A stretch of DNA of 64,000 nucleotides from an uncultured Acidobacteriota bacterium. Its GTDB lineage: Bacteria; Acidobacteriota; Polarisedimenticolia; Polarisedimenticolales; DASRJG01. Below are positions 2 through 41,226 of the stretch, in pieces. The DNA lies in assembly GCA_964383585.1 (NCBI GenBank), contig CAYLHQ010000004.1:10939-74938 (forward strand), read 5' to 3'. The position numbers were made by a program, and so were the translations under genes. Position 1 is the first letter of the stretch; each line of letters opens with the position of its first letter. Under the pieces are notes generated by a model. That model saw only the letters and a program-made list of their open reading frames with translations, was not told where the DNA came from and searched no databases.

Positions 2-598
2 GAGCGCTCGGTGATCGTCGCCCCCGGCGACGGCGTCGTGCTGCGACGCCTCGTCGAGCCGGGGCAGGAGATCGCCTCGGGATCGGCGGCGCTCGTGTTC
101 GGCTCGGCGGCGGAGGGATGGGTCGTCCGCGCCGGTCTCTCCCAGTCCGACGCCGTGCGGGTAGAGGCGGGGGACGCGGCAGAGGTCGAGTTTCCCGGTC
201 AGGCGGCGCGGGTCGCCGCCTCGGTCACGCGCCTCCACCAGGCGGCCGACCCGGTCACGCGTACGACGACGGTCGAGCTCGAGCTTCGCGCCGTCCCCGA
301 CGGCGTGCGTTCCGGAGACGTCGGCACGGTGGCGATCCGTCGCGCGGCCGATCGCGCGCGGGTCTCGGTCCCGCTCTCGGCCCTCGTCGAGGGGACCGGA
401 AACGATGGTTGGGTCTTTCTCCTCGATCCGGTCTCCTCGACGGTCCGGCGAGCCGCGGTGCGCACCGCGGGGATCGCCGGCGATCGGGCGCTCCTCGACA
501 CGCCGCTCGCGCCGGATGTCCTCGTCGTCATCGTCGGCGCCGAGTACCTGCGCGACGGCGCTTCGGTTCGCGTCGTGCGGGGAGGAGGGACGCGGTGA
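2..598 (+). CDS. efflux RND periplasmic adaptor (membrane-fusion protein), C-terminal part; 5' end outside window
   Basis: The frame is open from the window edge. The sequence ...SVIVAPGDGVVLRRLVEPGQEI...RVEAGDAAEVEF... is typical of the HlyD/MFP beta-barrel and MP-proximal domains. The stop overlaps the next start (GTGA at 595-598). Confidence 0.7.
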   Translation, partial: ERSVIVAPGDGVVLRRLVEPGQEIASGSAALVFGSAAEGWVVRAGLSQSDAVRVEAGDAAEVEFPGQAARVAASVTRLHQAADPVTRTTTVELELRAVPDGVRSGDVGTVAIRRAADRARVSVPLSALVEGTGNDGWVFLLDPVSSTVRRAAVRTAGIAGDRALLDTPLAPDVLVVIVGAEYLRDGASVRVVRGGGTR

Positions 599-3500: not shown

Positions 3501-3642
3501 CGTCCTCGAGGGTTCGTCGCTCTACTCGCCCCTCGCCCTCGTGATCCTCGGGGGGTTGGTCAGCTCGCTTCTCCTCTCCCGACTGGTCACGCCGGTGATG
3601 TACAGCTTGATTCCGCCGCCGGGGGGAGAGTCGCGCGTGTGA
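595..3642 (+). CDS. RND efflux transporter permease (AcrB/HAE1-like), about 1015 aa
   Basis: GTG at 595 is in frame with track ORF 118-3642. From here the sequence is typical AcrB (RIAEYAVRNGSLTLLGSILLVAVGVGAWIDIPRAEDPSFP..., 12-TM layout, two large periplasmic loops). The Arg-rich upstream 159 codons look like non-coding shadow. Confidence 0.9.
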   Translation: MRIAEYAVRNGSLTLLGSILLVAVGVGAWIDIPRAEDPSFPNTNFTVIAVYPGATQIDLEQLVVRPLEDAVKELDDLETIEASIEDGVAVLSIEFEASSDADEKFDEVLRQVNATRGDLPAELTSLEVEKFDTTNVAILQLALVSEEASYRRLDDLGEALRKRLEAVPGVKNAKTWALPERQVRVSLDLDRLAALRIPVGRVVEAIRGDNASLPGGAVELGRRRLNLKTSGNYASIEEVGRTPLDGNGAAVVSLRDVATIAWDYEDREYFGRYDGKRAIFVTATQREGQNIFRVREALMAQVEAFRGSLPGDVTLEVGFDQSVNVAHRLGALERDFLIAIGLVLVTLLPLGLRASGLVMVSIPLSLAIGLTLLHYTGFSLNQLSIVGFVIALGLLVDDSIVVVENIARFRRQGVPPVEAAIGATRQIGVAVVGTTATMLFAFLPLLALPETPGQYIRSLPVTVVYTVLASMVVALTIVPFLASRVLTGREDPEGNVFLRGIERVIHRTYRPLLHLAMRRRLATLGLAFALLAGSLALVPAIGFSLFPKAGMPQFLVRIEAPEGTSIGALDAIAREAEGRVLETPGIRSVMTSVGRGNPQIYYNVVPRSRKSNVAELFCSFERYDSEASPAVLQGLRDRLADVAGARILVKEFENGPPIEAPIAVRVLGEDLDGLARVAEEVAAILRDTPGTADVDNPLRVRKTDLRLRIDRDAAALLGVPLVEIDRMSRLAVAGLVVSRFRESDGDEYDIRLTVPHGERADLSGFRALQVPAVTGAYVPIRQVAALEFESTPVKIERRDRERAVTVTAEVEPGYNTDALTRQVRDAVDARGLPAGFRYELAGEYESRAESFGGLGTAILVAFFGIFGILVAEFKSFRGTLIVASVIPLGVIGGLVGLFLAGYTLSFTAMIGFVALIGIEIKNSILLVDFTNQLREQGVPLDEAIERAGEVRFLPVVLTTLTAVGALIPLVLEGSSLYSPLALVILGGLVSSLLLSRLVTPVMYSLIPPPGGESRV

Positions 3643-3814
3643 GCGGTGTCACCCCTTCCCCGCGATCCCGTGCCCGTGGAGCCGGGCGTCCGACGGAGAA
3701 TGTTCCACGGCGTCCACCACGTTCGGGGCCCCTCGCGCCCGTTCGGCTTGGCCTGAAGGGCGGGGGGCGACTGGGATGCCGTCGGCCGCGAAAGCGTGCT
3801 AGGTTCCCTTCCCG

Positions 3815-13781: not shown

Positions 13782-14893
13782 GGGAGCGTCTGCGCCTCGA
13801 CCGAGAGGACGGCGGGGAGGTCGCGCACGATCGGCGTCCACGAGTCCCCCTCGTCCGAGGATGCGTAAACCTGGCCGCCGGTCGTCCCGAAGTAGACGCC
13901 GCACGGGTCGAGCGCGTCGACGGCCGTCGCCTCGCGGAGGACGTTGACGTAGCAGTGCTCCTGGGGGAGCCCCTTCGTGAGCGGCTCCCACTCGTTTCCA
14001 CCCGAGCGGCTCCTGTAGACGCGCAGCTTTCCCTCCGGGGGGTAGTGGAGCGAATCGCTCGTGAACGGGACGACGTAGATCGTCTCGGGCTCGTGGGCGT
14101 GGACCTCGATCGGGAACCCGAAGTCGGTCGGGAGATTTCCGCTCACTTCCCGCCACGAATCGCCCGCGTCGTCGCTGCGCATCACGTCCCAGTGCTTCTG
14201 CATGAAGAGAACCCCGGGGCGGGACGGATGCATCGCGATGCGATGGACGCAGTGGCCGACCTCGGCTTCCGGATCGGGGAGGTACTCCGACTCGAGCCCG
14301 CGGTTGGTCGGCTTCCAGGTCGCCCCCGCGTCGTCGGAACGAAAGGCGCCGGCGGCCGAGATCGCGATGAAGATCCGACTTTCGTTCGAGGGATCGACCA
14401 GGATCGTGTGGAGGCACAAGCCCCCCGCCCCCGGCATCCACTGCGGACCCGATCCGTGGCCGCGCAGCCCCGCCAACTCCTTCCAGGTCCTCCCGCCGTC
14501 CGCGGTTCGAAAGAGGGCGGCGTCCTCCACCCCGGCGAGAACGACCTCGGGATCGGTGCGCGAGGGTTCGAGATGCCAGACGCGCTTGAATTTCCAGGGA
14601 AGGAGCGAGCCGTCGTAGTCCTGGTGCGTCCCCGTCTCCCCCTCGTAGGCGAACTCGTTGCCGACGGTTTCCCAGTGCTTTCCGCCGTCCTCGGAGCGCT
14701 GCATCACCTGCCCGAACCAGGCGCTCGCCTGCGACGCCCAGATCCGGTCGGGCTCCGCCGGCGAGCCCTTCAGGTGGTAGATCTCCCAGCCGGCGAAGTG
14801 CGGGCCGGAGACCTCCCACCGGAGGCGCTTCCCGTCGGATGTGAGGACGAAGGCCCCTTTGCGCGTTCCCACCAGCAACCGGACACCGCTCAT
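13778..14893 (-). CDS. BNR/Asp-box repeat beta-propeller protein, no signal peptide
   Basis: Five Asp-boxes ([39 protein letters not shown]). The start [15 protein letters not shown] (ATG 14893) is preceded by GGAGGA. Confidence 0.8.
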
Positions 14894-14930
14894 CGTTTCC
14901 TCCTTCTCGAATTTCGGGCAGTATACGGCG

Positions 14931-16067
14931 ATGGCCGGGCTTTCGAACCAGGAAGTGCTCCGGTACAGCCGCCACCTGCTGATGCCGGAGGTGACGCTCG
15001 AGGGGCAGGAGCGGCTCAAGCGGGCGCGCGTCCTCTGCGTCGGGGCCGGAGGGCTCGGTTCCCCGCTCACGCTCTACCTCGCGGCGGCGGGGGTCGGAAC
15101 GATCGGCATCGTCGAGTACGACACCGTCGACCTCACGAACCTTCAGCGGCAGGTGCTTTACGGGACCGGGGACGTCGGCCGGCCGAAGCTCGAGGCGGCG
15201 GTCGCGAGACTCGCCTCCTTGAACCCCGAGATCGAGATCGTTCCGCACCCGGTGAGGCTCACGAGCGCGAACGTGATGGAGACCCTCCGCGGCTACGACG
15301 CGGTCGCCGACGGAAGCGACAACTTCCCCACCCGCTACCTGGTGAACGACGCGTCGGTCCTCCTCGGGAAGCCGAACGTCCATGCGAGCATCTTCCGCTT
15401 CGACGGGCAGGTGAGCGTCTTCGATGCCGCGCGCGGCCCCTGCTACCGCTGCCTCTTCCCCCAACCCCCGCCTCCCGGCCTCGTCCCGTCGTGCGCCGAG
15501 GGCGGGGTGCTGGGGGTCCTTCCGGGGATCGTCGGTTCGCTCCAGGCGCTCGAGGTCCTCAAGATCGTCCTCGGCGTCGGGGAGCCGCTCGTCGGAAGGC
15601 TCGTCCTCTTCGACGCCCTCGGCTTCGTCTTCCGGGAGATCGCGATCGCGAAGGACCCGTCGTGTGCGGTCTGCGGCGATGCGCCCACCATCACCGCCCC
15701 GATCGACTACGACGCGTTCTGCGGCGTCGGCCCGAGCGAGGTCGAAGGGGTTCCGACGATCTCCGTCGAGGAGTTCGAGGCGCGGAGCGCGGACGGCGAG
15801 CGTTTCGATCTCCTCGACGTCCGGGAGCGGCACGAGTGGGAGATCGTGCGCATCCCGGGGGCGACCCTCTTTCCGATGAGCGAAGTCGCGTCACGCCTCC
15901 ACGAGCTCGACCCGACGCGCGCCTACACGATCTCGTGCCACCGCGGGGTCCGGAGCCGGCAGGTGTACCACCTGCTGCGGCGCGCCGGTTTCGAGAAGCT
16001 GACGATCCTCGAGGGAGGGGTCGACGCGTGGGCCGAACGAGTCGATCCGACGATGCCGCGGTACTGA
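14931..16067 (+). CDS. MoeB/ThiF-type E1-like adenylyltransferase fused to a rhodanese domain (MoeZ/MoeBR architecture)
   Basis: [11 protein letters not shown], the nucleotide loop GAGGLGSP, the CxxC pairs CYRC and CAVC, and a C-terminal rhodanese with active-site loop CHRGVRS. Confidence 0.9.
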
Positions 16068-22790: not shown

Positions 22791-25700
22791 CTACGGGCAA
22801 ACGGACAGTTCGGCATCCCTCCCCGGAAGTTCCGAGGGGGAACCGTCGTCCCACGTGGCGACGCCGGCACAGTTCCGCCCCCGAGCCAGATAGAAGAAGC
22901 CGTCACCCGGGTCGGGAAGGGCGGCGTCCTCGAGCGAGGTTCCCGGAACGTTCGACGCGAGGCAGGTGTCGGCCGCGGCCGTGAAGTCCCCGGCGGACGC
23001 CGCGAGGATGCCGATCGACCCTCGGGCGACGTCGTATCCGGTCGCCTCCGCCACCGTGCTCCAGGAGATCGCGACCCCTCCCGCCGAACGATCGACGGTC
23101 AACGACGGTGACCCGGCGGGGGCGACGAGGAGCGCACAGACGCAGTACCGGCCCCCGCTTCCGAGAAACCCCGCGGAACCGCTTCCGCCCCACACGAGCA
23201 TCTCGTCTCCGGTCCAGACGGCGCCGTGCAGCTCGCGCGGGCTCGGTGCTCCGAGCGTCGCGGTCGAAAACCACGCGTCGAGGTCGGGACGATACCGTCC
23301 TCCCGTACCTTCGAGGGTTCCGCCCGCCCCCCCCCAAAGCAGCATCTCGAGGCCGTTCCACACCGCCGTCGCCCGTTGCCTCGGACTCGGCGCGTCGGCC
23401 TCGCTGAGGGCGGTCCACGCGTCGAGCGCTGGGTTGTACCGCCCCCCGGAGGCGAGGTAGTCGAACTCGAATCCCCCCCACACGATCATTCCGCTTCCGT
23501 CCCACACCGCGGCGTGAGCGTACCGCGCGAGGGGGGCGCCGGTCGCGGCAACCGGCGTCCACGCGTCGGCCGAAGGGTCGTACCGGGCACCGTCGGCATA
23601 CGGGATTTGACCGTCCTGTCCGCCCCACACGATCATCTCGGATCCGGTCCAGACGCTCCGATGGTCGATCCGCTTCGCGGGAGCGCCCGCGGTTGAGATC
23701 GGAGTCCACGCGTCGGCGGTCGGCGCGTAGCGTCCGCCGTCGGCGAGGTTCCCCGACGCTCCCTGACCGCCCCAGACGATCATCGCGTCGCCCGACCAGA
23801 CGGCGGTGTGCCGGTAGCGGCCGCTCGGCGCCCCGGCGAGGCTCGTCGGCGTCCACGCGTCGGAAGCCGGGTCGTACCGTCCCCCGGAGGAGAGGAAGGT
23901 CGCGGCCCTCCCGCCCCACACGATCATCTCCGAGCCGGTCCAAACCGCCTGATGCTCGCTGCGCGCTTCGGGGGCGCCCGCGAGCGCGGTCGCGCTCCAC
24001 GAACCCGTGACGGGGTCGAATCGTCCTCCCGTCGCGAAGTTCCCGCCGATCCCGGTGCCCCCCCAGACGATCGCCTCGGCCCCGGTCCACACGAGGGTGT
24101 GACGGTCGCGGGCGTCGGGTGCGCCGCCGATCCGGACGGGCGTCCACGCATCGCCGGACGGGTCGTAGCGGGAACCGCTCGAGAGGTAACTGAGCGTGCC
24201 GCGCCCCCCCCACACGATCATTTCGGCCCCCGACCAGACGGCGGTGTGCTCGTAGCGTGCGGCGAGCCCCGCGGGGGCGATCGCGCTCCAGGCGTCCCCG
24301 AGGGGATCGTACCGGGCGCCGTCGTCGAGGTACGACGACGTGCCGACCTGTCCCCCCCAAACGACCATCGCGCTCCCGGTCCAGACCGCGGTGTGACGAT
24401 AGCGCGCGGCGGGTGCTGAGGTCGCGGTCGTGGGAGTCCAGCCGTCGGCGGCCGGGTCGTAAACGCCGCCCCCCGAAACCGGGCCCGCCGCGTCGCGACC
24501 TCCCCAGACGATCATCTCGCTCCCGTTCCACACGGCGGTGTGCAGGTAGCGGGCGAGAGGCGCCCCCGTCGCGCTCGTCGGCGTCCACGATCCCCCCACG
24601 GGATCGAATCGCGCGCCGCCGGCGAGCGGTCCCGATGCGCCCTGGCCTCCCCACACGATCATCTCGGTGCCGGACCAGACGGCGGTGTGGTCGAACCGTG
24701 CGGGGGCCGAGGCCGACGCGGGGATCGGCACCCAAACGTCGCCCGCGGGGTCGTAGATCCCGCCGTCGCCGAGAGCGCCCGCGGCGTTCCGTCCTCCCCA
24801 CACGATCATCTCGCTCCCGGTCCAGACCGCCGTGTGAAGGGAGCGCGCGCCTGGTGCGCCGCCCGAGGCGTTCGGCGTCGTCCAGGTGTCGGAGGAGGGG
24901 TCGTAGCGGGCTCCGTCCCCCAGGTAGCCGGCGGCGTTCCGCCCTCCCCACACCACCATCTCGCGACCGGTCCAGACGGCCGTGTGGTCGTAGCGAGGAT
25001 CGGGGGCGTTCAGTGCGCTCGTCGGTCGCCAGGCATCGGTCGCGGGGTCGTAGATCCCCCCGGAATCGAGCGCCCCCGCCCCGTTGTTTCCCCCCCAGAC
25101 GATCATCTCGGCTCCGGTCCAGACGGCGGTGTGCTGGAAACGCTCGTCCGGCTCCGACCGCATCCGCCCCCAGGTGTCGGGGGTGCAGGTCCCGACGGCG
25201 GGGCCTCCGAGCGGGAGCCCGGCCACGCCCTCGACGGGCGAGGGGAGGGGTGCCGGCTGCTTCGCGATCCAGAGGTCGAACGGGACCTTGTCCCAGGTTT
25301 CGATCGAGACCACGACCCGGCCGAATCCCTTGTCGAGCAGGATCGTCCGCGAGAATCCATCCGGTCCCTCTCCGAGAGGTCCCGCCCGGTTCACGGGAAG
25401 CGCATCGAGGGAAACGGTGTCCGTGTCGATCCCCAGACGCACCGCGAGGTCGCCGATCGTGCGCCGCCCGTCCGGTCCTTCGGTCGGGAGTCGGACCACC
25501 GACCGGCGCGGTGCCAAGCCCGCCTCCGCACGAGCGCGCACCGCGGCGTGGAGCGCCGGGTCCCACGCGTAGCGTTCCCTCGCGAGCCGCTCCGCGACGA
25601 TCGGCCGCGCGAGGGTCTCGGCGACGAGCACGGGGTCGTTGTCGAGGGCGGAGAACAGATCGCGTAGAACGTCGGGGCGCCGGGTGTCGCGCACCATCCG

Positions 25701-25979
25701 ATCGATTTCCCTCCGGAGCGCCGATGCGTCGATCCGGATCCCCCAACGGCGTTCGAGCGCGTCCGAGGCGGCGAGGGTCCGGAGAACCTTCGCGTGGACG
25801 GTCTCACGCGAGGGGGGGACGGGAGCCTCTCCTCCCGAGCGAAGGGCGGAATAGACCGACTCCACGCGGGTCCGCAGCTCGACACGGTCGTCGAGCGAGA
25901 GCGGTCGTGAGTCTTCGTCCGCGAGAAGAGAGGAAGGGAGCGCGAGGGAAACAAGGGCGAGGGCGGCGGCGTGACGCAT
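22791..25979 (-). CDS. secreted Kelch-repeat protein: N-terminal unknown domain, 14 Kelch-like blades, C-terminal FN3-like module
   Basis: Signal peptide MRHAAALALVSLALPSSLLA. Fourteen repeats of about 50 aa of the form H-T-A-V-W-T-G-x-E-M-I-V-W-G-G...G-G-R-Y-D-P-x-x-D-x-W. Confidence 0.85.
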   Translation of the reverse strand: MRHAAALALVSLALPSSLLADEDSRPLSLDDRVELRTRVESVYSALRSGGEAPVPPSRETVHAKVLRTLAASDALERRWGIRIDASALRREIDRMVRDTRRPDVLRDLFSALDNDPVLVAETLARPIVAERLARERYAWDPALHAAVRARAEAGLAPRRSVVRLPTEGPDGRRTIGDLAVRLGIDTDTVSLDALPVNRAGPLGEGPDGFSRTILLDKGFGRVVVSIETWDKVPFDLWIAKQPAPLPSPVEGVAGLPLGGPAVGTCTPDTWGRMRSEPDERFQHTAVWTGAEMIVWGGNNGAGALDSGGIYDPATDAWRPTSALNAPDPRYDHTAVWTGREMVVWGGRNAAGYLGDGARYDPSSDTWTTPNASGGAPGARSLHTAVWTGSEMIVWGGRNAAGALGDGGIYDPAGDVWVPIPASASAPARFDHTAVWSGTEMIVWGGQGASGPLAGGARFDPVGGSWTPTSATGAPLARYLHTAVWNGSEMIVWGGRDAAGPVSGGGVYDPAADGWTPTTATSAPAARYRHTAVWTGSAMVVWGGQVGTSSYLDDGARYDPLGDAWSAIAPAGLAARYEHTAVWSGAEMIVWGGRGTLSYLSSGSRYDPSGDAWTPVRIGGAPDARDRHTLVWTGAEAIVWGGTGIGGNFATGGRFDPVTGSWSATALAGAPEARSEHQAVWTGSEMIVWGGRAATFLSSGGRYDPASDAWTPTSLAGAPSGRYRHTAVWSGDAMIVWGGQGASGNLADGGRYAPTADAWTPISTAGAPAKRIDHRSVWTGSEMIVWGGQDGQIPYADGARYDPSADAWTPVAATGAPLARYAHAAVWDGSGMIVWGGFEFDYLASGGRYNPALDAWTALSEADAPSPRQRATAVWNGLEMLLWGGAGGTLEGTGGRYRPDLDAWFSTATLGAPSPRELHGAVWTGDEMLVWGGSGSAGFLGSGGRYCVCALLVAPAGSPSLTVDRSAGGVAISWSTVAEATGYDVARGSIGILAASAGDFTAAADTCLASNVPGTSLEDAALPDPGDGFFYLARGRNCAGVATWDDGSPSELPGRDAELSVCP

Positions 25980-26575: not shown

Positions 26576-27829
26576 CTAGCCGGGGAACGCCGCCTTCCTC
26601 CTCCTCATTTCGGAGGCCATCTCCCGGATCTCCGAGAGGTCGCGCACCATCTCGCTCCACCCGTACCAGAGGGCGTAGTCGGGGTTCGCGTGGAACGCCC
26701 CCTGGAAGGCGCGCATCCGATGTTCGAGGTGCATCTCGAAGAGGCGCTGCTCGATCGGGGTCGGGGCGTCGTGAAAGGTCAGGAGGTCGGGGAAGGCGTA
26801 CGCGTACGACTCGGGTTTTCTCAGGATCCCGTCCTTGTAGAGCCCGGCGACCACGCGGATCGCCTCGGCGAGGAGGTGATCCGCCTCGCGGAGCAGGTCG
26901 TCCCCTTTTCGGAGCTCGGCGCGCGCGAAGTTCTCCGAGTGGCAGTCGCTGCAAACGGCGATCAGTTTCTCCCGCTCCCGGTCGAACGCCTCCTGGGTCA
27001 GCCGGGCCACGTCGGCCGCCTTCACCACGTCGAGCCGGGCGGTCGGCTTCCCGTCGGGATCGAGCACGCCGAGCGCCTGGAGGATCGTCGTCTGGTCGGC
27101 CTTCCACTGCGGGTCCTCGGAAAGGGGGAGCCGGACCGCGAGGAACCCCCACGCGGTGCGGACCTCGTGGTCCCCCTTCGGCATGTGGCAGTCTTGGCAG
27201 GTCGGGGCCGGGGTCGTCGCGGGGAGGGTCCCGTTCTGCTTGAGGAGGTAACGCACGCCGTGCTTCGAGGAGGACCACATTTCCCACTGCGGGTGGTCGA
27301 ACCCCATGTGGCAGGTCTGGCAGGCCTGGGGCTCGCGCGCCTCCTTGACCGAGAAGGTGTGGCGGGTGTGGCACGAATCGCACGAGGCGTGGCCGAACAC
27401 GGAGCCTTCGGATTTGAGCCGCCCGATCTCGGCGTCGTCCTTGAAACCGATCTTGTGGCAGCCGCCGCATCCTTTCATCCCGCCCGAGAGCGACATCGGG
27501 AGGGCGTGGGTCGTCGGCATCGCCTTGTAGGAGGCCCATCCGAGAGCGTGCTTCCCTTTCGCGAACTGTCCGTGCTGGGTCTCGTGGCAGACGGCGCAGG
27601 TCGCGGCGGTGACCGTCTTTACCTTCGCCACGTCCGCGGCGGAAGCGTGCTCGCCGCCGTGGCAGGCGTCGCATCCCACCCCGCTCCCGGCGTGCGCGCT
27701 CGCCTTCCAGTCGGCGACGAGGTTCGGGGTGAGCTTCCCGTGACAGGCAACGCAGGCGCCGTCGTCGGCCGCGGTCGCTCCCGGTCCGAGCAGCAGGAGA
27801 AGGGCGGGGATCCAGGCTCGCTTCCTCAT
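26576..27829 (-). CDS. octaheme c-type cytochrome, hydroxylamine-oxidoreductase (HAO)-like family
   Basis: Signal peptide and eight CXXCH motifs (CVACH, CDACH, CAVCH, CGGCH, CDSCH, CQTCH, CQDCH, CSDCH). HAO-like C-terminal helical region ...GAFHANPDYALWYGW.... RBS GGGAGG. Confidence 0.85.
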   Translation of the reverse strand: MRKRAWIPALLLLLGPGATAADDGACVACHGKLTPNLVADWKASAHAGSGVGCDACHGGEHASAADVAKVKTVTAATCAVCHETQHGQFAKGKHALGWASYKAMPTTHALPMSLSGGMKGCGGCHKIGFKDDAEIGRLKSEGSVFGHASCDSCHTRHTFSVKEAREPQACQTCHMGFDHPQWEMWSSSKHGVRYLLKQNGTLPATTPAPTCQDCHMPKGDHEVRTAWGFLAVRLPLSEDPQWKADQTTILQALGVLDPDGKPTARLDVVKAADVARLTQEAFDREREKLIAVCSDCHSENFARAELRKGDDLLREADHLLAEAIRVVAGLYKDGILRKPESYAYAFPDLLTFHDAPTPIEQRLFEMHLEHRMRAFQGAFHANPDYALWYGWSEMVRDLSEIREMASEMRRRKAAFPG

Positions 27830-27889
27830 CGTGACCTCCCAGGGGTGAAGCCGGAGAACGATTATGCACGCAAGCGGGGAAAGGGACGC

Positions 27890-27905
27890 TGTGACTTCGG
27901 TCACA
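27890..27905. promoter_or_regulatory. CRP/FNR-family type binding site TGTGA-N6-TCACA
   Basis: TGTGACTTCGGTCACA is a perfect inverted repeat. It is centred in the 122-bp divergent region between the HAO-like gene (ATG 27829) and the hemerythrin gene (TTG 27952). Confidence 0.45.
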
Positions 27906-27951
27906 CCGGAATCGCCCAAGAAGGCGCACGTTCGGCAGGGAGGAGGCGCTC

Positions 27952-28560
27952 TTGAGACCCACCCAAGTGTTGAAGAACGAACACCGCGTGATCGAACTCG
28001 TCCTCGACTGCCTCGACGCGATGGCGGCCCGCTGCGAGGCGGACGGAAGGCTCGACGGCGAATCGGCCCGCGAGGCGATCGGCTTCTTCCGCAACTTCGC
28101 GGACCGATGTCACCACGCCAAGGAAGAGAACCAGCTCTTCCCCCTCATGGAGGCGCGAGGGTTCGACGCGAACGCGGGGCCGACCGCGGTCATGCGGCAC
28201 GAGCACGTGATGGGGCGTGCGTACGTCGCTGCGATGGAACGCGCCGTGCCGGGAGCCTCCGCGGGAGAGGCGGAGCCGCGCGCGGGTTGGCTCGAGGCGG
28301 CCCGTGCCTACTCCTTCCTGCTCCGCGAGCACATCGACAAGGAGGACCATTGCCTCTTCCCGATGGCCGATCAGGGTCTCCTCGCGACCGACGTCGCACG
28401 ACTCACGGAGGAGTTCCTGAGGGTCGAGCGGGAAGAGATCGGGCCCGGGGTCCACGAACGGTACGTCGCGCTCGCGGATGCCCTGGCCGACCGGTTCGGC
28501 GTCAGCAGGGAGGGAGTTCCGGACGCCGCCCGGTCCTGCGGGTGCTCGGGGCAGCATTGA
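27952..28560 (+). CDS. hemerythrin-like (HHE cation-binding) domain protein
   Basis: LKNEHRVIE, CHHAKEENQLFPLM, MRHEH, and HIDKEDHCLFPMAD. TTG start 6 nt after AGGAGG. Confidence 0.85.
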   Translation: MRPTQVLKNEHRVIELVLDCLDAMAARCEADGRLDGESAREAIGFFRNFADRCHHAKEENQLFPLMEARGFDANAGPTAVMRHEHVMGRAYVAAMERAVPGASAGEAEPRAGWLEAARAYSFLLREHIDKEDHCLFPMADQGLLATDVARLTEEFLRVEREEIGPGVHERYVALADALADRFGVSREGVPDAARSCGCSGQH

Positions 28561-29723
28561 GAGGGGCGGTTCCCGCGCTCGTCGCGGCGCTCGCCGTTTC
28601 CGGCGCGGCGGCCGAGGAGAAAGACCTCGGCACGTTCGGGATCGGCCTGCGCTACCGCTACGAGAACGTCTCCGAAGACGCGTTCGCGAAGGACGCCCAT
28701 GCTTCGACGTTGCGGACGAACGTCTTCTACGAGTCCGCCGAGGTCCGCCGCTTCTTCGCCTTCCTCGAGTTCGAGAACACCGCGGACCTCGGCCTCGGCG
28801 ACCAGCACAACAGCACCACGAACGGGATCACCGACCGGCCGGTCGTCGCCGATCCGAAGGGGACCGAGGTCCACCAGGTCTATCTCGGGTACGAAGGGAT
28901 CCCGGGGACGCGAATCCTCGCCGGACGGCAGGAGATCGTCTTCGACGACGCCCGGTTCGTGGGGAACGTCGCGTGGCGGCAGAATTTCCAGTCGTTCGAC
29001 GGAGCGCGCGTGACCCAGCGGTCGATCCCGCGGACGGTCCTCGACTACGCGTGGGTCCGCAACGTCAACACCGTGGTCGGGACGAACCGCGACTCCGACC
29101 ACCACCTCCTGCAGGCGGAGGTCGACGCAGGCCGGTTCGGGAAGGCGCTCGCCTACTTCTACCGACTCGACTTCGGCCCCTCCGCGGCTTCGAGTGCGTC
29201 CGCGACCTTCGGCGTGCGATGGGCGGGGACGATCCGGACGGCTCCGGTCGAGATCCCGTTCCGTGTCGAGGCGGCCCGGCAGGAGGCCGCGGCGGACAAT
29301 CCCGGTCCGCTCGAAGCCGGTTACCTGCGCGCGGTCGCCGGGATCCGACGGGGCGGATGGAAGGCCGACCTCGGGTGGGAGCGCCTCGGCGGGAGCCCCG
29401 GGGAGGGGCAGTTCCAGACCCCGCTCGCCACGCTCCACAAATGGAACGGATGGGCCGACAAGTTCCTGACGACTCCGGCGAACGGCCTCGAGGATCTCGT
29501 CGTGTCGGTCTCGTACGGCGCAGGCGCCTGGTCGGGGGAGATCGCCGCGCACCGCTTCGACGCGGACTCGGGAGGTGCGACGTACGGGCACGAGCTCGAC
29601 GGACAGGTGACCTACCGCGCACGCTGGGGCCAGGAGTTCCTCTTGAAGCTCGCCCTGTATGATGCCGACGCGTTCTCCACGGACACCGAGAAACTGTGGA
29701 TCCAAACGACCTACCGGTTCTGA
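28557..29723 (+). CDS. alginate-export-family outer-membrane beta-barrel porin
   Basis: Signal peptide, FGIGLRYRYENVSEDAF..., ...GRQEIVFDDARFVGNVAWRQNFQSFDG..., and a C-terminal ...TTYRF. TTGA overlap with the hemerythrin stop. Confidence 0.7.
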   Translation: MRGAVPALVAALAVSGAAAEEKDLGTFGIGLRYRYENVSEDAFAKDAHASTLRTNVFYESAEVRRFFAFLEFENTADLGLGDQHNSTTNGITDRPVVADPKGTEVHQVYLGYEGIPGTRILAGRQEIVFDDARFVGNVAWRQNFQSFDGARVTQRSIPRTVLDYAWVRNVNTVVGTNRDSDHHLLQAEVDAGRFGKALAYFYRLDFGPSAASSASATFGVRWAGTIRTAPVEIPFRVEAARQEAAADNPGPLEAGYLRAVAGIRRGGWKADLGWERLGGSPGEGQFQTPLATLHKWNGWADKFLTTPANGLEDLVVSVSYGAGAWSGEIAAHRFDADSGGATYGHELDGQVTYRARWGQEFLLKLALYDADAFSTDTEKLWIQTTYRF

Positions 29724-30238
29724 GCGGCACCCGGGCTCGCGTGGTCGGCGTCGTCGCCCCGAGCGGCACGGGGAAGACGACCCTTCTCTGCCGGGTCGTG
29801 CCGATTCTCCGCGCGCGGGGTCTTCGTGTGGGCGCGGTCAAGCACGCCCATCACGGGTTCGACCTCGACCGGCCCGGCAAGGACAGCCATCGCCTCCGCG
29901 AAGCGGGAGTCGAGCAGATCCTCCTGGTCGGGCCGGAACGGTGGGCGCTTCTCGGGGAGGCGGAGCCCGGAGAACAAGACACCCTCGAACGGGCCCTCGA
30001 GCGGATGGACGCGGAACGACTCGATGTCATCCTCGTCGAAGGGTACCGCGGGAGCCGCTACCCGAAGATCGAGGTCTACCGCGACGCGATCGGAGAGCCT
30101 CCGCTCCACCCCGCCGACCCGAGCGTCATCGCCGTCGCGACGAACGGTCCCCTTCCCGCGCCGACGACTCTTCCCGTGCTTCCGCTCGACGATCCCGAGC
30201 GCGTCGCCTCGTTCCTCCTCCGCTTCGTGCGAAGATGA
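29696..30238 (+). CDS. mobB: molybdopterin-guanine dinucleotide biosynthesis adaptor protein MobB
   Basis: P-loop VVAPSGTGKTTL, KHAHHGFDLDRPGKDS, and LVEGY. The GTG 29696 start overlaps the porin 3' end by 28 nt, so the start is not certain. Confidence 0.85.
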   Translation: MDPNDLPVLSGTRARVVGVVAPSGTGKTTLLCRVVPILRARGLRVGAVKHAHHGFDLDRPGKDSHRLREAGVEQILLVGPERWALLGEAEPGEQDTLERALERMDAERLDVILVEGYRGSRYPKIEVYRDAIGEPPLHPADPSVIAVATNGPLPAPTTLPVLPLDDPERVASFLLRFVRR

Positions 30239-30242
30239 CCGG

Positions 30243-30485
30243 GTGCGCTGGCTCGACCGCATCCCGTGGTTCGTCCTCGTCTTGGCCGCGATTCTTCTCG
30301 GTACGGCGCCGCTCCGGCCCGAGCCCCACCTCTGGCAGAAACTGAAGACGCTGGCGAACGGGACCCGCCTCCGGCCGATCGACGTCTTCGATCTCGCGAT
30401 GCACGGAGCCCCCGTCGCGCTTTTGGCGCTCGAGTTCGTCAGGGAGGCGACTCTGCGGCGAGGCGGCGACCGGTCCTCGAAATGA
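30243..30485 (+). CDS. small membrane protein (80 aa), conserved partner of TusA-like genes
   Basis: GTG start, VRWLDRIPWFVLVLAAILLGTAPLRPEPHLWQKLKTL...IDVFDLAMHGAP. The stop overlaps the tusA-like ATG (ATGA). Confidence 0.5.
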   Translation: MRWLDRIPWFVLVLAAILLGTAPLRPEPHLWQKLKTLANGTRLRPIDVFDLAMHGAPVALLALEFVREATLRRGGDRSSK

Positions 30486-30721
30486 CGGGAGACGCCGCCC
30501 CGACCCTCGAGGCCCGCGGCCTGCGCTGTCCGGTTCCGATTGCTCGCACGCGGGAACGCCTCGCGACGCTTCAGGCGGGGGACCGGCTCGACGTCCTCGG
30601 GGACGACCCGTTCTTCCGCCTCGACATGCAGGCGTTCTGTGCGTGCGAGGGGCACCGGTACCTCGGGGAGAAGCCGGAGCCGGGCGGCGGATGGAGACTC
30701 TCCCTTCGAAAAGGAAGCTAG
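30482..30721 (+). CDS. TusA/SirA-family sulfurtransferase
   Basis: 79 aa, with LEARGLRCPVPIARTRERL containing the conserved CPxP active-site Cys. Confidence 0.8.
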   Translation: MTGDAAPTLEARGLRCPVPIARTRERLATLQAGDRLDVLGDDPFFRLDMQAFCACEGHRYLGEKPEPGGGWRLSLRKGS

Positions 30722-34748: not shown

Positions 34749-35335
34749 CGAGGCGACTCCTCGTCGCGACAGGGAACGCGGGAAAGCTCCGCGAGTTCCA
34801 ATCGGCGCTCGCGCCCTACGGGATCGAGGTCGTCGGGCTCGAGGCGCTCGCCGACCGGAGCGAGGACGCGGAGACGGGGAGGACGTTCGAGGAGAACGCC
34901 CGGCTGAAGGCCGAGGCGTACTCGCGGCGAACCGACCTACCGGTCCTCGCCGACGACTCGGGGCTCGAGGTCGATGCGCTCGGGGGACGGCCGGGGGTCC
35001 TCTCCGCGCGGCTCGGCGGGCCCGCGATGTCGGACGCCGCGCGCTGCAAGGCGGTCCTCAAGGGGCTCGTCGACGTCCCCGACGAGGCACGCACCGCGCG
35101 GTTCCGATGCGTTCTCGCCCTCGCCCGCGCGGGGAAGACGGTGGCGGTGGTCGAGGGCTCGGTCGAGGGGACGATCCTGCGGGAGCTTCGGGGTGGCGGA
35201 GGGTTCGGATACGACCCGATCTTCTTCCATCCTCCGTCGGGGAAGACCTTCGCCGAGATGACCCCCGAGGAAAAGGAGCGCGTCTCTCACCGAGGAGAGG
35301 CGATCAGAAAAGGGGACTGGCACCTTTTTCGATAG
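34745..35335 (+). CDS. rdgB: dITP/XTP pyrophosphatase (RdgB/HAM1 family)
   Basis: LLVATGNAGKLREF, DDSGLEVDAL, GFGYDPIF, and SHRG. The last 8 codons (KGDWHLFR) are encoded by a REP arm. Confidence 0.9.
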   Translation: MTRRLLVATGNAGKLREFQSALAPYGIEVVGLEALADRSEDAETGRTFEENARLKAEAYSRRTDLPVLADDSGLEVDALGGRPGVLSARLGGPAMSDAARCKAVLKGLVDVPDEARTARFRCVLALARAGKTVAVVEGSVEGTILRELRGGGGFGYDPIFFHPPSGKTFAEMTPEEKERVSHRGEAIRKGDWHLFR

Positions 35336-36035
35336 GGTCCTCCACTGGCGGGCGGGAACTGCCTTCCTCCGGTCCTTTCCGGATGCGCGGCCGTCCGCGC
35401 TCCCGGAGGCTCCCCTCGAGCCCGAGGTCGCGCGCGGTCTTCACCATCCACGCGGGTTCGCCGTAGGGCCTTCCGCGAACGAGGTGCTTCCGGAGCATCT
35501 CGACATCGGGAACCGGCTGATTCAGGTCGACGCGGGCCTCCCAGTCCTCGGGGCGGTCGATCGGGCCTGGGTCGCCGAACGTCGGCCAAGTTCCGCGCCG
35601 CCACCAGTGGATCGAGGACCACGGCCAGAGGGCGGCGCGCGACGCGAGTCCGGCGCGGACCGGGTTCCGCTCGACGTAAAGGAGCACGCGGAGCAGGTGC
35701 TCGTCTTCCTGAACCGGGAACGACTTGAATCGATCCTGCCAGACCCGTCCGCTCGATTCGTGACGGCCGTGGTATCTACGCACGTGGCTCGTCGTGAGCC
35801 TATGAAGGAAAAGGCTCAGGTCGCCGTCCGCAGCGGGCCACAGCACGAGGTGGAAGTGGTTGGGCATCAGGCAGTACGCCAGCACCCGGACGGGATGAGC
35901 CTCGTACGCGCGGGCAATCAGGTTCACGAATTGCTGATAGTCGGAGGCGTCGTGGAAGACCGTCGCTCGACGGTTTCCCCGGTTCATGACGTGGTAGCAC
36001 AACCCTCCGACGCACATGCGGCGGCCTCTCGGCAT
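35304..36035 (-). CDS. REP-associated tyrosine transposase (RAYT; IS200/IS605 TnpA Y1 HUH family)
   Basis: HUH motif in LMPNHFHLVL and a catalytic-Tyr helix in LLYVERNPVRAGL. About 243 aa, flanked by inverted REP arms. Confidence 0.85.
   Translation of the reverse strand: MPRGRRMCVGGLCYHVMNRGNRRATVFHDASDYQQFVNLIARAYEAHPVRVLAYCLMPNHFHLVLWPAADGDLSLFLHRLTTSHVRRYHGRHESSGRVWQDRFKSFPVQEDEHLLRVLLYVERNPVRAGLASRAALWPWSSIHWWRRGTWPTFGDPGPIDRPEDWEARVDLNQPVPDVEMLRKHLVRGRPYGEPAWMVKTARDLGLEGSLRERGRPRIRKGPEEGSSRPPVEDPIEKGASPLF
35308..35329. repeat. single REP arm, AAAAGGGGACTGGCACCTTTTT
   Basis: Exact match to the repeat-family consensus. It forms the left inverted terminus of the RAYT unit, paired with 36143-36163. 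Confidence 0.85.
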
Positions 36036-36110
36036 GGTTCGATTCCGGGGAGGCGGGCGGGACGCCAGCGAAAAACTAGGGCTCTTCGTGGCGGAACGCA
36101 AGGAGAGTGG

Positions 36111-39646: not shown

Positions 39647-40927
39647 TCACGCCGCCCGCTCGAGCGCGACGACCGGCAGGTGGCGCCGGCCGTCCAAGAA
39701 CCTCACCCGCACGTCGGGGACGGCCCCCGGGGAACCGGCGCCTCGCAACGCCGTGGGCGGGCCTCCCGAGTACGCCTCGTCCGGCGTCGCCCCCGCAAGC
39801 CTCTCGTGCGGTCGCAGCCCGTTGTACCAGCACCGGAAGAGCGAAAGCTCCTCCCGAAGGGCGGCCGCCGAGTAGGCGACGACGACCCGCCGCGTGCACT
39901 CGCGCTTCATCGTCTGGATCAGCCGCTCGATCACCGCGATGCTCCCGAACTGACCGATCGCCCCGAACCACTGCCGCATCCCGAGGCGTGCGCACCACGT
40001 GCGGAACCTCCGCTCGCGAAACTGCCAACCGTGATCCGTGACGAGAACCCGCGGCCGGCTGCCCGACTCGCGCACGACGCAGCCGAGAAACCTCCGCACC
40101 GCCCGCGCGGACGGCTGCCCCCTGAAGACCTCGAACCCGAGGAGGCGTCGCGAAAAGTGGTCGGCGACGACCGCGACCCACCAGCAGTAGGGCCAGCGCT
40201 GCGGGAACGAGAAAGGAAACCACGAAACCCACAAGCCCAGGGAGGTCGGGACGATCGTGAGGTCGCAATGCCAGACATGATTCGGATAGCGCCCGACGAT
40301 CCGCCGTCCCGGCGTGCGCTCGGCGACGGGGTCCCTCCCGGCGCCCGGGTTTCCCTTCTCGCGGAGCATCCGCCGGACCGTGGTCGCCCCGAGATGCAGC
40401 CCTTCGCGGCACAGCACCTGCGCGATCTTCTTGTAGCCGAGACTCGGGCACAGGAGCTTCAATCGCCGTACGATGTACGAGACGAACTCGGGGAACTTGT
40501 TCACGGGAGTGGGGAGTTGAACGACCGCCGTGGGACCTTCGTCTCTCAGCCGCCGCATCCAGGCAGACACGGTGGCGGGGGAGACCAGAAGCCGGTTCGC
40601 GGCCTGCGTGAGGGACCATCCGCGGCAGGCGCGCAGCTCGAGGATGGCGAGCCGTTCGGTCGGTGCGTAGTGCGGCCGCTCCGGCGCGGGGATTCGGGCC
40701 ATGCGGGCGTCCTTGATGCGGATTTCCTCCTGGAGCAACGCCACCTCCTGGCGCAGCCGATCGACCTCGGTCTTCAGACGGACCCGGGCACTGCGATGAT
40801 TCGCCGCCCAGCCGCGGCTCGTGACGAGCGCGGTGTGGGCGAGCGCGCAGACGTGGATGACGGCGGAGCGGACCCGCTTCGGCCACCCCTTGGGAAGCAC
40901 GGCGCCGAAGTTCGGTTGATGGGTCAT
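39647..40927 (-). CDS. DDE-type integrase/transposase (rve core; IS481/IS3-superfamily-like) with N-terminal HTH
   Basis: HTH in RGWSLTQAANRLLVSPATVSAWMRRL. DDE triad: HVWHCDLT, LVTDHGWQF, and E 36 residues later in AVIERLIQTMKRE. RBS GGGAGGA before ATG 40927. Terminal inverted repeats were not identified. Confidence 0.85.
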   Translation of the reverse strand: MTHQPNFGAVLPKGWPKRVRSAVIHVCALAHTALVTSRGWAANHRSARVRLKTEVDRLRQEVALLQEEIRIKDARMARIPAPERPHYAPTERLAILELRACRGWSLTQAANRLLVSPATVSAWMRRLRDEGPTAVVQLPTPVNKFPEFVSYIVRRLKLLCPSLGYKKIAQVLCREGLHLGATTVRRMLREKGNPGAGRDPVAERTPGRRIVGRYPNHVWHCDLTIVPTSLGLWVSWFPFSFPQRWPYCWWVAVVADHFSRRLLGFEVFRGQPSARAVRRFLGCVVRESGSRPRVLVTDHGWQFRERRFRTWCARLGMRQWFGAIGQFGSIAVIERLIQTMKRECTRRVVVAYSAAALREELSLFRCWYNGLRPHERLAGATPDEAYSGGPPTALRGAGSPGAVPDVRVRFLDGRRHLPVVALERAA

Positions 40928-41151
40928 GGATCCTCCCGAAACGGTCGTGAAACGAACCGAGAACATGCGTCGATAACCCTTTACGTGGCAACATCTTCGC
41001 CGCAATTCGGCACCGTTCAGAATCGCTGGCACCGCCTCCGTGGGCCGGCGTTTTCGCGTGGGCTTCGATCGTTGACGCTTTCCCGGGCCCGGTGGTACAT
41101 TTCCGCGGCTGTTCGGGCCGATTCCTCAGGGAAGAGGCCACGTGCGGATGT

Positions 41152-41226
41152 TCCTGAGTAGCTCAGTGGTAGAGCAGGCGGCTGTTAACCGCCGGGTCGG
41201 GGGTTCAAATCCCTCCTCAGGAGCCA
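41152..41226 (+). tRNA. tRNA-Asn (anticodon GTT), CCA encoded
   Basis: Acceptor TCCTGAG/CTCAGGA, D-stem GCTC/GAGC, anticodon stem GGCGG/CCGCC with loop CTGTTAA, T-arm GGGGG-TTCAAAT-CCCTC, discriminator G plus CCA. Confidence 0.95.

Follow-up and report, generated by a model that had tools for sequence, protein, structure and literature searches.

A putative tyrosine-less octaheme cytochrome of the hydroxylamine oxidoreductase family and its CRP/FNR-type promoter palindrome in an uncultured Acidobacteriota bacterium

In the genome of an uncultured Acidobacteriota bacterium of the Polarisedimenticolia, a gene for an octaheme cytochrome c resembling hydroxylamine oxidoreductase (HAO) and a gene for a hemerythrin-domain protein are transcribed away from each other across a perfect palindrome of the type recognized by CRP/FNR-family regulators. 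Both genes lie in a 64,000-nucleotide stretch of contig CAYLHQ010000004.1 (assembly GCA_964383585.1, positions 10,939 to 74,938 of the forward strand), which is referred to here as the window and whose own numbering is used throughout. The locus raises the question of which reaction the cytochrome catalyzes, and whether the palindrome joins the two genes into a compact unit for the detoxification or respiration of N-oxides, as a first-pass annotation of the sequence had proposed. The reading favored here, with somewhat better than even confidence, is that the gene encodes a periplasmic HAO-family octaheme N-oxide reductase without the cross-linking tyrosine of the oxidative enzymes (Tyr-less), which would be activated by a CRP/FNR-family regulator in a class-II-like arrangement and to which the hemerythrin is a neighbor in this lineage only.

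The cytochrome gene occupies positions 26576 to 27829 of the minus strand, within a longer open reading frame (ORF; 26576-27919) whose internal ATG at 27829 yields a product of 417 amino acids (aa), the length also given by the JGI gene call. A Shine-Dalgarno sequence, GGGAGG (27835-27840, minus strand), stands 5 nt upstream of this ATG and is kept in two related loci, L087 and L001, the latter from the closest GTDB genome, an Acidobacteriota metagenome-assembled genome (MAG) with 90% amino-acid identity. A count over the product gives eight CXXCH motifs and no CXXCK motif. Residues 1-20 (27770-27829, minus strand; MRKRAWIPALLLLLGPGATA, with A as the next residue and ADDGAC as the mature start) read by eye as a signal peptide of typical Sec type, in which a basic N-terminus leads into a hydrophobic core and an A-T-A motif, and a hydrophobic N-terminal leader occurs in 25 of 25 aligned family members; such a peptide would place the cytochrome in the periplasm. 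Solved HAO-family chains have 500-582 residues, and compared with the canonical enzymes the cytochrome is short by ∼55 residues at the N-terminus and ∼55 at the C-terminus. No other ORF with two or more CXXCH motifs was found in the 64-kb window. The ORF, leader and motif count thus bear out the earlier description of a secreted minus-strand octaheme protein that is shorter than canonical HAO and has no partner cytochrome nearby.

Membership of the HAO family is indicated by several searches. The protein matches the Pfam family PF13447 (E 4.5e-26; 92 bits against a cut-off of 21.9), and when its single sequence was compared with all PDB sequences, the significant matches were HAO-family chains only. 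A profile of the tight family ranked the Kuenenia stuttgartiensis enzyme HAOr (6h5l) first at 1.8e-39, followed by Nitrosomonas europaea HAO (NeHAO, 5.7e-34), KsHOX (1.7e-31), HDH (2.3e-27) and IhOCC (9e-25). A broader profile gave HAOr 3.5e-73, KsHOX 6e-68, BfHOX 4e-67, NeHAO 2e-64, HDH 8e-54 and IhOCC 5e-50, then a steep fall to OmhA/OcwA at about 7e-14; NrfA, MccA and ONR were marginal (1e-5 to 1e-6), and OTR (1sp3) did not appear in the list of 51 chains with E ≤ 0.001. On these scores the cytochrome is an HAO-clade enzyme, not one of the MccA, OTR, ONR or NrfA type; a grouping with MccA or tetrathionate types, which had been named as the outcome that would speak against an HAO-like octaheme cytochrome, was looked for by the same profile search and not found. 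An AlphaFold2 model built from a 25-sequence family alignment was poor (predicted local distance difference test score, pLDDT, 62; predicted template-modeling score, pTM, 0.51) and was therefore not used for residue-level conclusions, those on the cross-link loop included. Foldseek with this poor model again returned HAO-family chains as the only significant matches, HAOr first, with TM-scores of ∼0.3. The model's predicted helices 299-332, 358-379 and 383-414 line up with the C-terminal parts of HAOr and NeHAO, where long helices build the trimer interface of the family; pLDDT reaches 90-96 in portions of helices 299-332 and 383-414 and 65-87 in the rest. The "orange octaheme cytochrome" of Beggiatoa was considered as a member of the same family and set aside: its alignment lacks the family motifs, and the accompanying legend gives CxxCH/K heme sites.

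The predicted active site has the features of an HAO. All eight heme motifs are invariant across the 25 aligned family sequences, and since all are CXXCH, the proximal ligand of the catalytic heme would be His, where NrfA and ONR have Lys. The segment CHMGFD178H179 aligns with CHSGVDH of NeHAO, CHMGIDH of KsHOX and CHMGPDH of HAOr, and D178 and H179, the putative distal Asp-His pair, are invariant in 25 of 25 sequences; in NeHAO the distal pair, which follows the heme 6 motif, is Asp267-His268.

The direction of catalysis turns on a different residue. Numbered along the chain, the Tyr467 of NeHAO that cross-links to heme 4 in the adjacent subunit lies within AHVNPGGWTY467TEGWGPM, and the counterpart in the cytochrome is H380-ANPDYALWYGWSEM, in which the column shared by NeHAO Tyr467 and the Tyr415 of KsHOX and BfHOX holds Leu387. 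HMMER alignments set Tyr467 on Leu387 with both the tight-family and the broader profile, the broader profile placed the tyrosines of KsHOX and BfHOX (..AHMSMYNQTY415GNG..) in the same column, and an alignment of 58 C-terminal domains with MAFFT L-INS-i again put the NeHAO and KsHOX tyrosines on Leu387. The His-to-helix loop matches that of Tyr-less HAOr (AHAQQDVSWWWGQAPM) in length, and the loops of the oxidative enzymes are longer by 1-2 residues. The cytochrome is accordingly scored as lacking the cross-linking Tyr, that is, as a predicted Tyr-less type; the check for this residue, suggested with the first-pass annotation, supports Leu387 by two HMMER profiles and by MAFFT, with a single dissenting alignment that is weighed below. 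HAOr, itself Tyr-less, reduces nitrite to nitric oxide (NO) and does not oxidize NH2OH (PMC8042395), and the epsilonproteobacterial Hao (epsilon-Hao) is credited with nitrite and hydroxylamine reduction in the work that PMC8042395 cites. Because these Tyr-less HAOs are reductive, the Tyr-less cytochrome is expected to be a reductase; by analogy, its direction of catalysis is predicted to be reductive, and we infer that the substrate lies among nitrite, NO and hydroxylamine.

HAOr is the best solved relative of the cytochrome both by sequence and by Foldseek, with ∼22% identity over the Foldseek alignment. The two share eight CXXCH hemes, the distal Asp-His pair, an equal His-to-helix loop and a C-terminal helical domain, predicted in the case of the cytochrome, and neither has a Tyr in the cross-link column, which holds Trp in HAOr and Leu in the cytochrome. 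HAOr and the diheme cytochrome Kustc0457, which is encoded alongside it, form a complex (PMC8042395). It differs from the 417-aa cytochrome in its 517 residues (Kustc0458) and in having this partner, for which the window has no gene; the cytochrome further departs from it by a 19-aa insertion between hemes 4 and 5, by ∼30 extra residues between hemes 7 and 8, and by falling into a separate clade in a rough tree. The oxidative enzymes HAO, HOX and HDH (N. europaea 1fgj/4fas; Kuenenia 4n4j and 6hif) share the fold family, the heme order and a catalytic heme 4 with His as proximal ligand and a distal Asp-His pair. These enzymes, however, have their own cross-linking Tyr (Tyr467 in NeHAO), longer N- and C-terminal regions and c554/cM552 partners, whereas the cytochrome has Leu387 at the column, is ∼130 residues shorter and has no partner genes.

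The epsilon-Hao, reportedly the subject of Haase et al. in 2017, is likened to the cytochrome by description, as a Tyr-less HAO-family octaheme protein of non-nitrifiers. A NapC/NrfH-type quinol dehydrogenase is the proposed electron donor of epsilon-Hao, and the idea of a reversed hydroxylamine-ubiquinone redox module (HURM) comes from Nautilia; in keeping with such a donor, a NapC/NirT gene lies 3′ of the cytochrome orthologue in eight of the 80 loci described below. Reduction of nitrite and hydroxylamine by epsilon-Hao in vitro is reported in the studies that PMC8042395 and PMC8940962 cite. The epsilon-Hao homologue of Caldithrix adjoins a nap cluster (PMC5317091), unlike the orphan cytochrome of the window. 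Tyr-less "hao" genes (K10535/PF13447) are abundant in metagenomes, such as those of hypersaline mats (PMC8940962), and resemble the window's gene in their PF13447 domain, their missing Tyr, their occurrence in non-nitrifiers and a function that is not established. The comparison with these mat genes is by description only; that study does not delimit the ∼415-aa subfamily, with its fixed heme spacing, orphan genes and FNR-type promoter.

The cytochrome belongs to a compact and widespread subfamily of ∼415 aa. A homology search returned at least 7,735 matching clusters, and the best 120 listed are 72-89% identical to it and nearly all 405-429 aa long (one has 503 aa). A scan of GTDB with one genome per species found at least 581 carrier species; the counts out of 80 given here refer to the best 80 loci, whose carriers include Acidobacteriota, Gemmatimonadota, Ignavibacteria, Zixibacteria, Calditrichota, Latescibacterota, Bacteroidota and Chromatiales and, among cultured organisms, Ferrimonas species and Shewanella canadensis HAW-EB2, whose orthologues include L007, L012, L015 and L020. 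Identity across the subfamily ranges from 66 to 90%. Heme-motif spacing is 27, 25, 43, 29, 20, 41 and 82 in the cytochrome and in 118 of 120 subfamily sequences, and relative to solved HAOs there is a conserved insertion of 19 aa between the heme 4 and heme 5 motifs and a stretch of ∼30 extra, near-invariant residues between hemes 7 and 8; in the cytochrome these insertions lie at residues 126-149 and about 226-280. An exhaustive profile search of 1.84 billion cluster representatives recovered 2,211 relatives at E ≤ 1e-3 and 303 at E ≤ 1e-30. In a rough neighbor-joining tree of representatives and pieces of three solved enzymes, the subfamily forms its own tight clade and HAOr, NeHAO and KsHOX fall with the clade of canonical spacing. 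None of the 10 low-GC representative clusters that were looked up belonged to Campylobacterota. Several distant HAO-like relatives (P0140, P0150, P0159, P0166, P0185 and P0188) begin with sequences such as ..GGFxEWxxAGYP.., similar to the last part of a rhodanese domain, and may represent fusion proteins or gene calls that were cut short.

The regulatory side of the locus centers on the 122-bp intergenic region (27830-27951) between the cytochrome and the hemerythrin. It contains the palindrome TGTGACTTCGGTCACA (27890-27905), a putative operator of CRP/FNR-family type and the only perfect TGTGA-N6-TCACA in the 64 kb; none of 100 shuffles contained one. The divergent genes, their spacing and the palindrome agree in coordinates and sequence with the first-pass annotation, apart from its placement of the site exactly midway: with its center at 27897.5, the site leaves 68.5 bp to the cytochrome ATG and 54.5 bp to the hemerythrin TTG, and lies 7 bp off the midpoint. 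The palindrome is identical in the related loci L001, L085/86 and L087/88. Toward the cytochrome, CCGGTGTGACCGAAGTCACAGCG is followed in the window, L001 and L087/88 alike by a 24-nt spacer, CGTGCATAATCG and then the Shine-Dalgarno sequence, and the spacer between the palindrome and CATAAT has diverged in sequence and kept its 24-nt length; a site kept while its spacer diverged is a classical footprint. CATAAT itself (27861-27866, minus strand) is the candidate -10 hexamer of the cytochrome promoter and lies in a block, GCGTGCATAATCG, that is identical in the window and L001, with CGTGCATAATCG kept in L087. The cytochrome promoter showed neither a -35 box nor a full sigma-70 match, as would be expected of an activator-dependent promoter. 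With CATAAT as the -10 element, the predicted transcription start site (TSS) falls at about 27854 and the palindrome is centered at about -43.5.

Related boxes stand upstream of orthologous genes. Across 77 orthologous loci, compared with shuffles and control windows, a perfect TTGAY-N4-RTCAA lies 62-123 bp 5′ of the start codon in 13, where shuffles predict 0.02, and the same pattern occurs in 0.2% of control windows; the loci belong to genomes of the FCB group, Eisenbacteria, Calditrichota, Zixibacteria, Ignavibacteriales, Acidobacteriota and Gamma- and Deltaproteobacteria. The shorter core TGA-N6-TCA is present in 18 of the 77 (1.5 expected). A TAnnnT hexamer follows exactly 22 nt after the box in six of 16 non-redundant boxes and at almost no other offset, and the same 22-nt position is occupied by CATAAT in L052 and by TATATG in L009; in these other loci, the offset corresponds to the standard class II arrangement, with the site at -41.5. 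While the window's lineage has CRP-like half-sites (GTGA), those found elsewhere are FNR-like (TTGA). Class II promoters of anaerobic N-oxide genes are known from E. coli FNR at nir and nrf and from the Dnr/NnrR boxes of denitrifiers. In such CRP/FNR promoters a TGA-N6-TCA-type palindrome ∼41.5 bp 5′ of the TSS takes the place of the -35 element, an arrangement that the orthologues with the 22-nt offset reproduce; the window departs from it in having GTGA, not TTGA, half-sites and a spacing 2 bp longer. Kept in three relatives, and with related boxes enriched upstream of orthologues in several phyla, the palindrome retains its assignment to the CRP/FNR type and is best explained as a putative class-II-type activator site of the cytochrome promoter.

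Further operator sites were sought in the window with relaxed patterns, which were not enriched. The sole near-match, TGTGAGCGGTGTCACC (3638-3653, one mismatch), spans the stop codon of an AcrB-type transporter gene (118-3642) and, lying between convergent genes, is probably not a promoter site. Searches upstream of the orthologues for sigma-54 promoters and for common 8-mers gave no signal. Perfect TGTGA-N6-TCACA matches also occur inside cytochrome coding sequences (L011:6001-6016, L023:6373-6388, L030:4464-4479, L041:555-570, L066:4959-4974 and L074:6448-6463), because the heme-motif codons C-D/E-x-C-H-T (TGT GAN NNN TGT CAC A) spell the pattern; genome-wide counts of CRP sites will therefore include coding artifacts in multiheme cytochrome genes.

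On the other side of the palindrome lies the hemerythrin gene (27952-28560, plus strand), which encodes a 202-aa protein matching PF01814 over residues 3-139 (E 2.8e-20; 73.5 bits against a cut-off of 25.3). Its Shine-Dalgarno sequence, GGGAGGAGG (27938-27946, plus strand), precedes the TTG start and is kept in L001 and L087; because L001 has ATG and L087 has GTG at the same position, the TTG at 27952 is favored over the GTG at 27967 of the JGI call. The gene appears to head a five-gene operon: its stop overlaps by 4 nt the gene of an alginate-export-type outer-membrane porin (28557-29723, plus strand; PF13372, E 1.3e-9), and genes for MobB (PF03205, E 1.3e-45), an 80-aa ORF and TusA (PF01206, E 3.2e-16) follow at 29741-30721 on the same strand. 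The full order hemerythrin-porin-MobB-ORF-TusA is kept in L001 and L087/88, and the porin gene is further backed by the JGI gene call and by the gene order in L085-L088.

That the palindrome is instead a shared bidirectional operator, with cytochrome and hemerythrin forming a compact N-oxide detoxification or respiration unit, is the alternative that survives best, and it is nonetheless unlikely. It draws on the divergent layout and the identical palindrome, which recur in three relatives at species level, namely the window, L001 and L087/88, on the strong Shine-Dalgarno sequences of both genes with the palindrome between them, and on weak local matches of the hemerythrin to the di-iron repair proteins YtfE and DnrN. 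The last of these, however, amount to a best score of 31.6 bits over 34 residues for the RIC/YtfE/DnrN models, whose cut-off is 254, which does not sustain the earlier assignment of the hemerythrin to the class that repairs iron centers. Of the 80 loci, only three have a hemerythrin within 6 kb of the cytochrome: in L001 it is the divergent neighbor, in L016 an immediate neighbor read from the same strand, and in L005 it stands at a distance of ∼3 kb. The adjacent, divergent layout is thus confined to the window's own lineage. Hemerythrin homologues fall into 1,856 clusters and stand elsewhere in unrelated contexts, such as behind an EB_dh/Fer4 operon or beside sulfatase, AhpC or PQQ proteins. 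The coupling to the porin, with MobB and TusA following, suggests a different functional context for the hemerythrin. On the hemerythrin side, moreover, the Shine-Dalgarno sequence would cover the position of a class II TSS (about 27939), and nothing resembling a -10 hexamer is seen, so activation from the palindrome is unlikely; repression, or no effect at all, is possible. The cytochrome-hemerythrin pairing is lineage-specific, a local accident of gene order, and the notion of a compact unit is not supported; of the proposed co-regulation through a shared site, the half that concerns the cytochrome promoter fits the geometry and the half that concerns activation of the hemerythrin does not.

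Two further observations touch the hemerythrin. In L081 (1915-4609), a 68%-identical homologue is the last gene of an operon that also encodes an EB_dh protein resembling a heme b gamma subunit and a protein with a faint Fer4_11 match; if these are subunits of the type II dimethyl sulfoxide (DMSO)-reductase family, they would hint that this hemerythrin family is tied to periplasmic molybdoenzymes. The window also has, at 14841-16067 (plus strand), a ThiF/MoeB-type adenylyltransferase-rhodanese fusion, its third gene of molybdenum-cofactor or sulfur transfer alongside MobB and TusA; no molybdoenzyme gene was seen in the window by Pfam scans.

Gene context, scanned over the 80 loci with Pfam on the nearest upstream and downstream genes and with a count of CXXCH-rich ORFs, shows the cytochrome to be mostly an orphan gene. 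All-against-all clustering of ORFs across these loci yielded no conserved neighbor, only shadow ORFs of the cytochrome gene itself, and a co-encoded partner cytochrome of HURM type is lacking in the window and in most loci. In the eight loci mentioned above (L049, L056, L064, L068, L071, L074, L078 and L080), a tetraheme NapC/NirT-type gene of ∼205 aa lies directly downstream on the same strand; L003 has a gene for a cytochrome c554-like protein, and three of the 80 loci have Rieske protein genes. The NapC/NirT and c554-like neighbors echo the logic of the HAO-c554-cM552 chain and so support a link to the quinol pool. Neither the window nor the list of commonest Pfam families in the genes flanking the orthologues contained amo-type genes. 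In three Ferrimonas loci (L007:5353-5904, L011:5309-5851 and L015:5304-5852), a conserved same-strand ORF of ∼180 aa, ending ...RYSNG, stands directly 5′ of the cytochrome gene, which suggests a two-gene operon specific to this genus. Directly downstream of the cytochrome in the window (22791-25979, minus strand) is a gene for a 1,062-aa secreted protein with many Kelch-like "WGG...YDP...W" repeats, which has no JGI Pfam match; it is 81% identical in L001, and an RND transporter takes its place in L087. Farther along the window, an IS200-like Y1 transposase gene (35304-36101, minus strand) and an rve-type integrase gene (39647-41032, minus strand) stand beside the only tRNA gene of the window (41152-41223, plus strand), and this region may be a mobile-element insertion site.

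A second alternative, that the HAO-like fold serves a non-nitrogen substrate such as sulfite, tetrathionate or metal oxides, takes part in extracellular electron transfer, or acts as an electron wire, is regarded as quite improbable. The two conserved insertions, one by the catalytic heme motif and the other between hemes 7 and 8, occur in no solved HAO; there are no nitrogen-cycle neighbors; the carriers Ferrimonas and Shewanella are metal and sulfur respirers; and the window holds TusA and MoeB-rhodanese genes. All of this would suit such a role, but the distal Asp-His pair, which is characteristic of the N-oxide chemistry of HAO, shows no variation, the closest characterized relatives all act on nitrogen compounds, and the similarity to MccA, ONR and NrfA is marginal, with OTR absent from the listed chains.

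Less probable again is an oxidative HAO that converts hydroxylamine or hydrazine to NO or N2 and forms a P460-type cross-link through the invariant Y385 or Y389. The invariance of these two tyrosines in the tight family, the one HMMER alignment that set the KsHOX Tyr on Y389 and the JGI label "hydroxylamine dehydrogenase" on several subfamily members could be read in its favor. The tyrosines of NeHAO, KsHOX and BfHOX nevertheless all fall on Leu387 with the broader profile and MAFFT, and the loop has the length found in Tyr-less HAOr. The flanking tyrosine positions are not conserved in the nearest sister clusters, where position +9 reads N, R, R, R, N and G. The carriers fetched lie outside the known nitrifier lineages, amo-type genes are missing as described, and an FNR-type promoter points to anoxic expression. 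That the palindrome has no regulatory role, and is an inverted repeat arisen by chance or a hairpin of the RNA or DNA, is hardly credible: the window has no regulator gene to offer, but none of the shuffles had a match, the site is perfectly kept in three relatives despite a diverged adjacent spacer, and analogous boxes with a fixed -10 offset lie upstream of orthologues in several phyla.

The favored reading, a regulated periplasmic N-oxide reductase, can be put as a sequence of steps. A CRP/FNR-family regulator encoded elsewhere in the genome would bind the TGTGA-N6-TCACA palindrome, with low O2, NO or a similar cue as the probable signal, and the bound regulator would activate the -35-less promoter, with CATAAT as its -10 element, in a class-II-like arrangement. 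The exported enzyme, presumably a trimer, would be supplied with electrons of the quinol pool by an unlinked cytochrome, either of the NapC/NirT/NrfH type or another periplasmic one, and nitrite, NO and/or hydroxylamine would be reduced at a five-coordinate, His-ligated heme 4 with its distal Asp-His pair. In this scheme we infer which electron donor serves the enzyme, how many subunits assemble, and which regulator acts in response to which signal.

A number of points weigh against it. The window's CATAAT lies 24 nt after the 14-mer, which puts the palindrome at about -43.5 from a TSS that is itself predicted, in place of the canonical 22 nt (-41.5) of other loci, and boxes of this kind occur in only about a quarter of the orthologous loci. 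Within the 64 kb, no CRP/FNR regulator was found by tblastn with E. coli CRP and FNR queries or by Pfam scans of ∼37 ORFs, and the same Pfam scans found no electron-donor gene and no other nitrogen-cycle gene. The two subfamily insertions, absent from all solved HAOs, could alter substrate specificity. A narrower HMMER profile alignment to KsHOX set its Tyr on Y389, and Y385 and Y389, invariant in the tight family, flank Leu387 within two residues, so that an unusual cross-link may form there. The literature searched yielded no biochemical study of the ∼415-aa subfamily.

Tyr-less octaheme cytochromes of the HAO family are already known, the window's gene is a typical member, and its own instance adds no new principle; what is modestly new is the picture of a subfamily that is very conserved, widespread, mostly orphan and repeatedly placed under FNR/CRP-type control. 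The bolder proposition that the ∼415-aa orphan cytochrome is a widespread, unrecognized periplasmic N-oxide reductase induced by FNR/CRP under O2 limitation is put forward tentatively, as something that may well turn out otherwise. If true, the enzyme might form NO from nitrite or scavenge hydroxylamine or NO, the nitrite/NO step would be filled in organisms scored as being without NirS, NirK and NrfA, and the two family-specific insertions might confer a substrate or partner specificity unlike that of characterized HAOs. In some metagenomes, "hao" calls in non-nitrifiers rank among the most abundant nitrogen-cycle genes (PMC8940962), and such genes are routinely misread as evidence of hydroxylamine oxidation. 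The subfamily can be recognized by its fixed heme spacing, two insertions, Leu at the cross-link column and Asp-His pair; from these features, its spread over at least 581 species, its mostly orphan genes and its recurrent FNR/CRP-type class II promoters, a reductase responsive to O2, NO or nitrite is predicted, and cultured carriers, Ferrimonas species and Shewanella canadensis, exist. Should these cytochromes be nitrite or NO reductases, the nitrogen-cycle inventories of many heterotrophic phyla would need revision.

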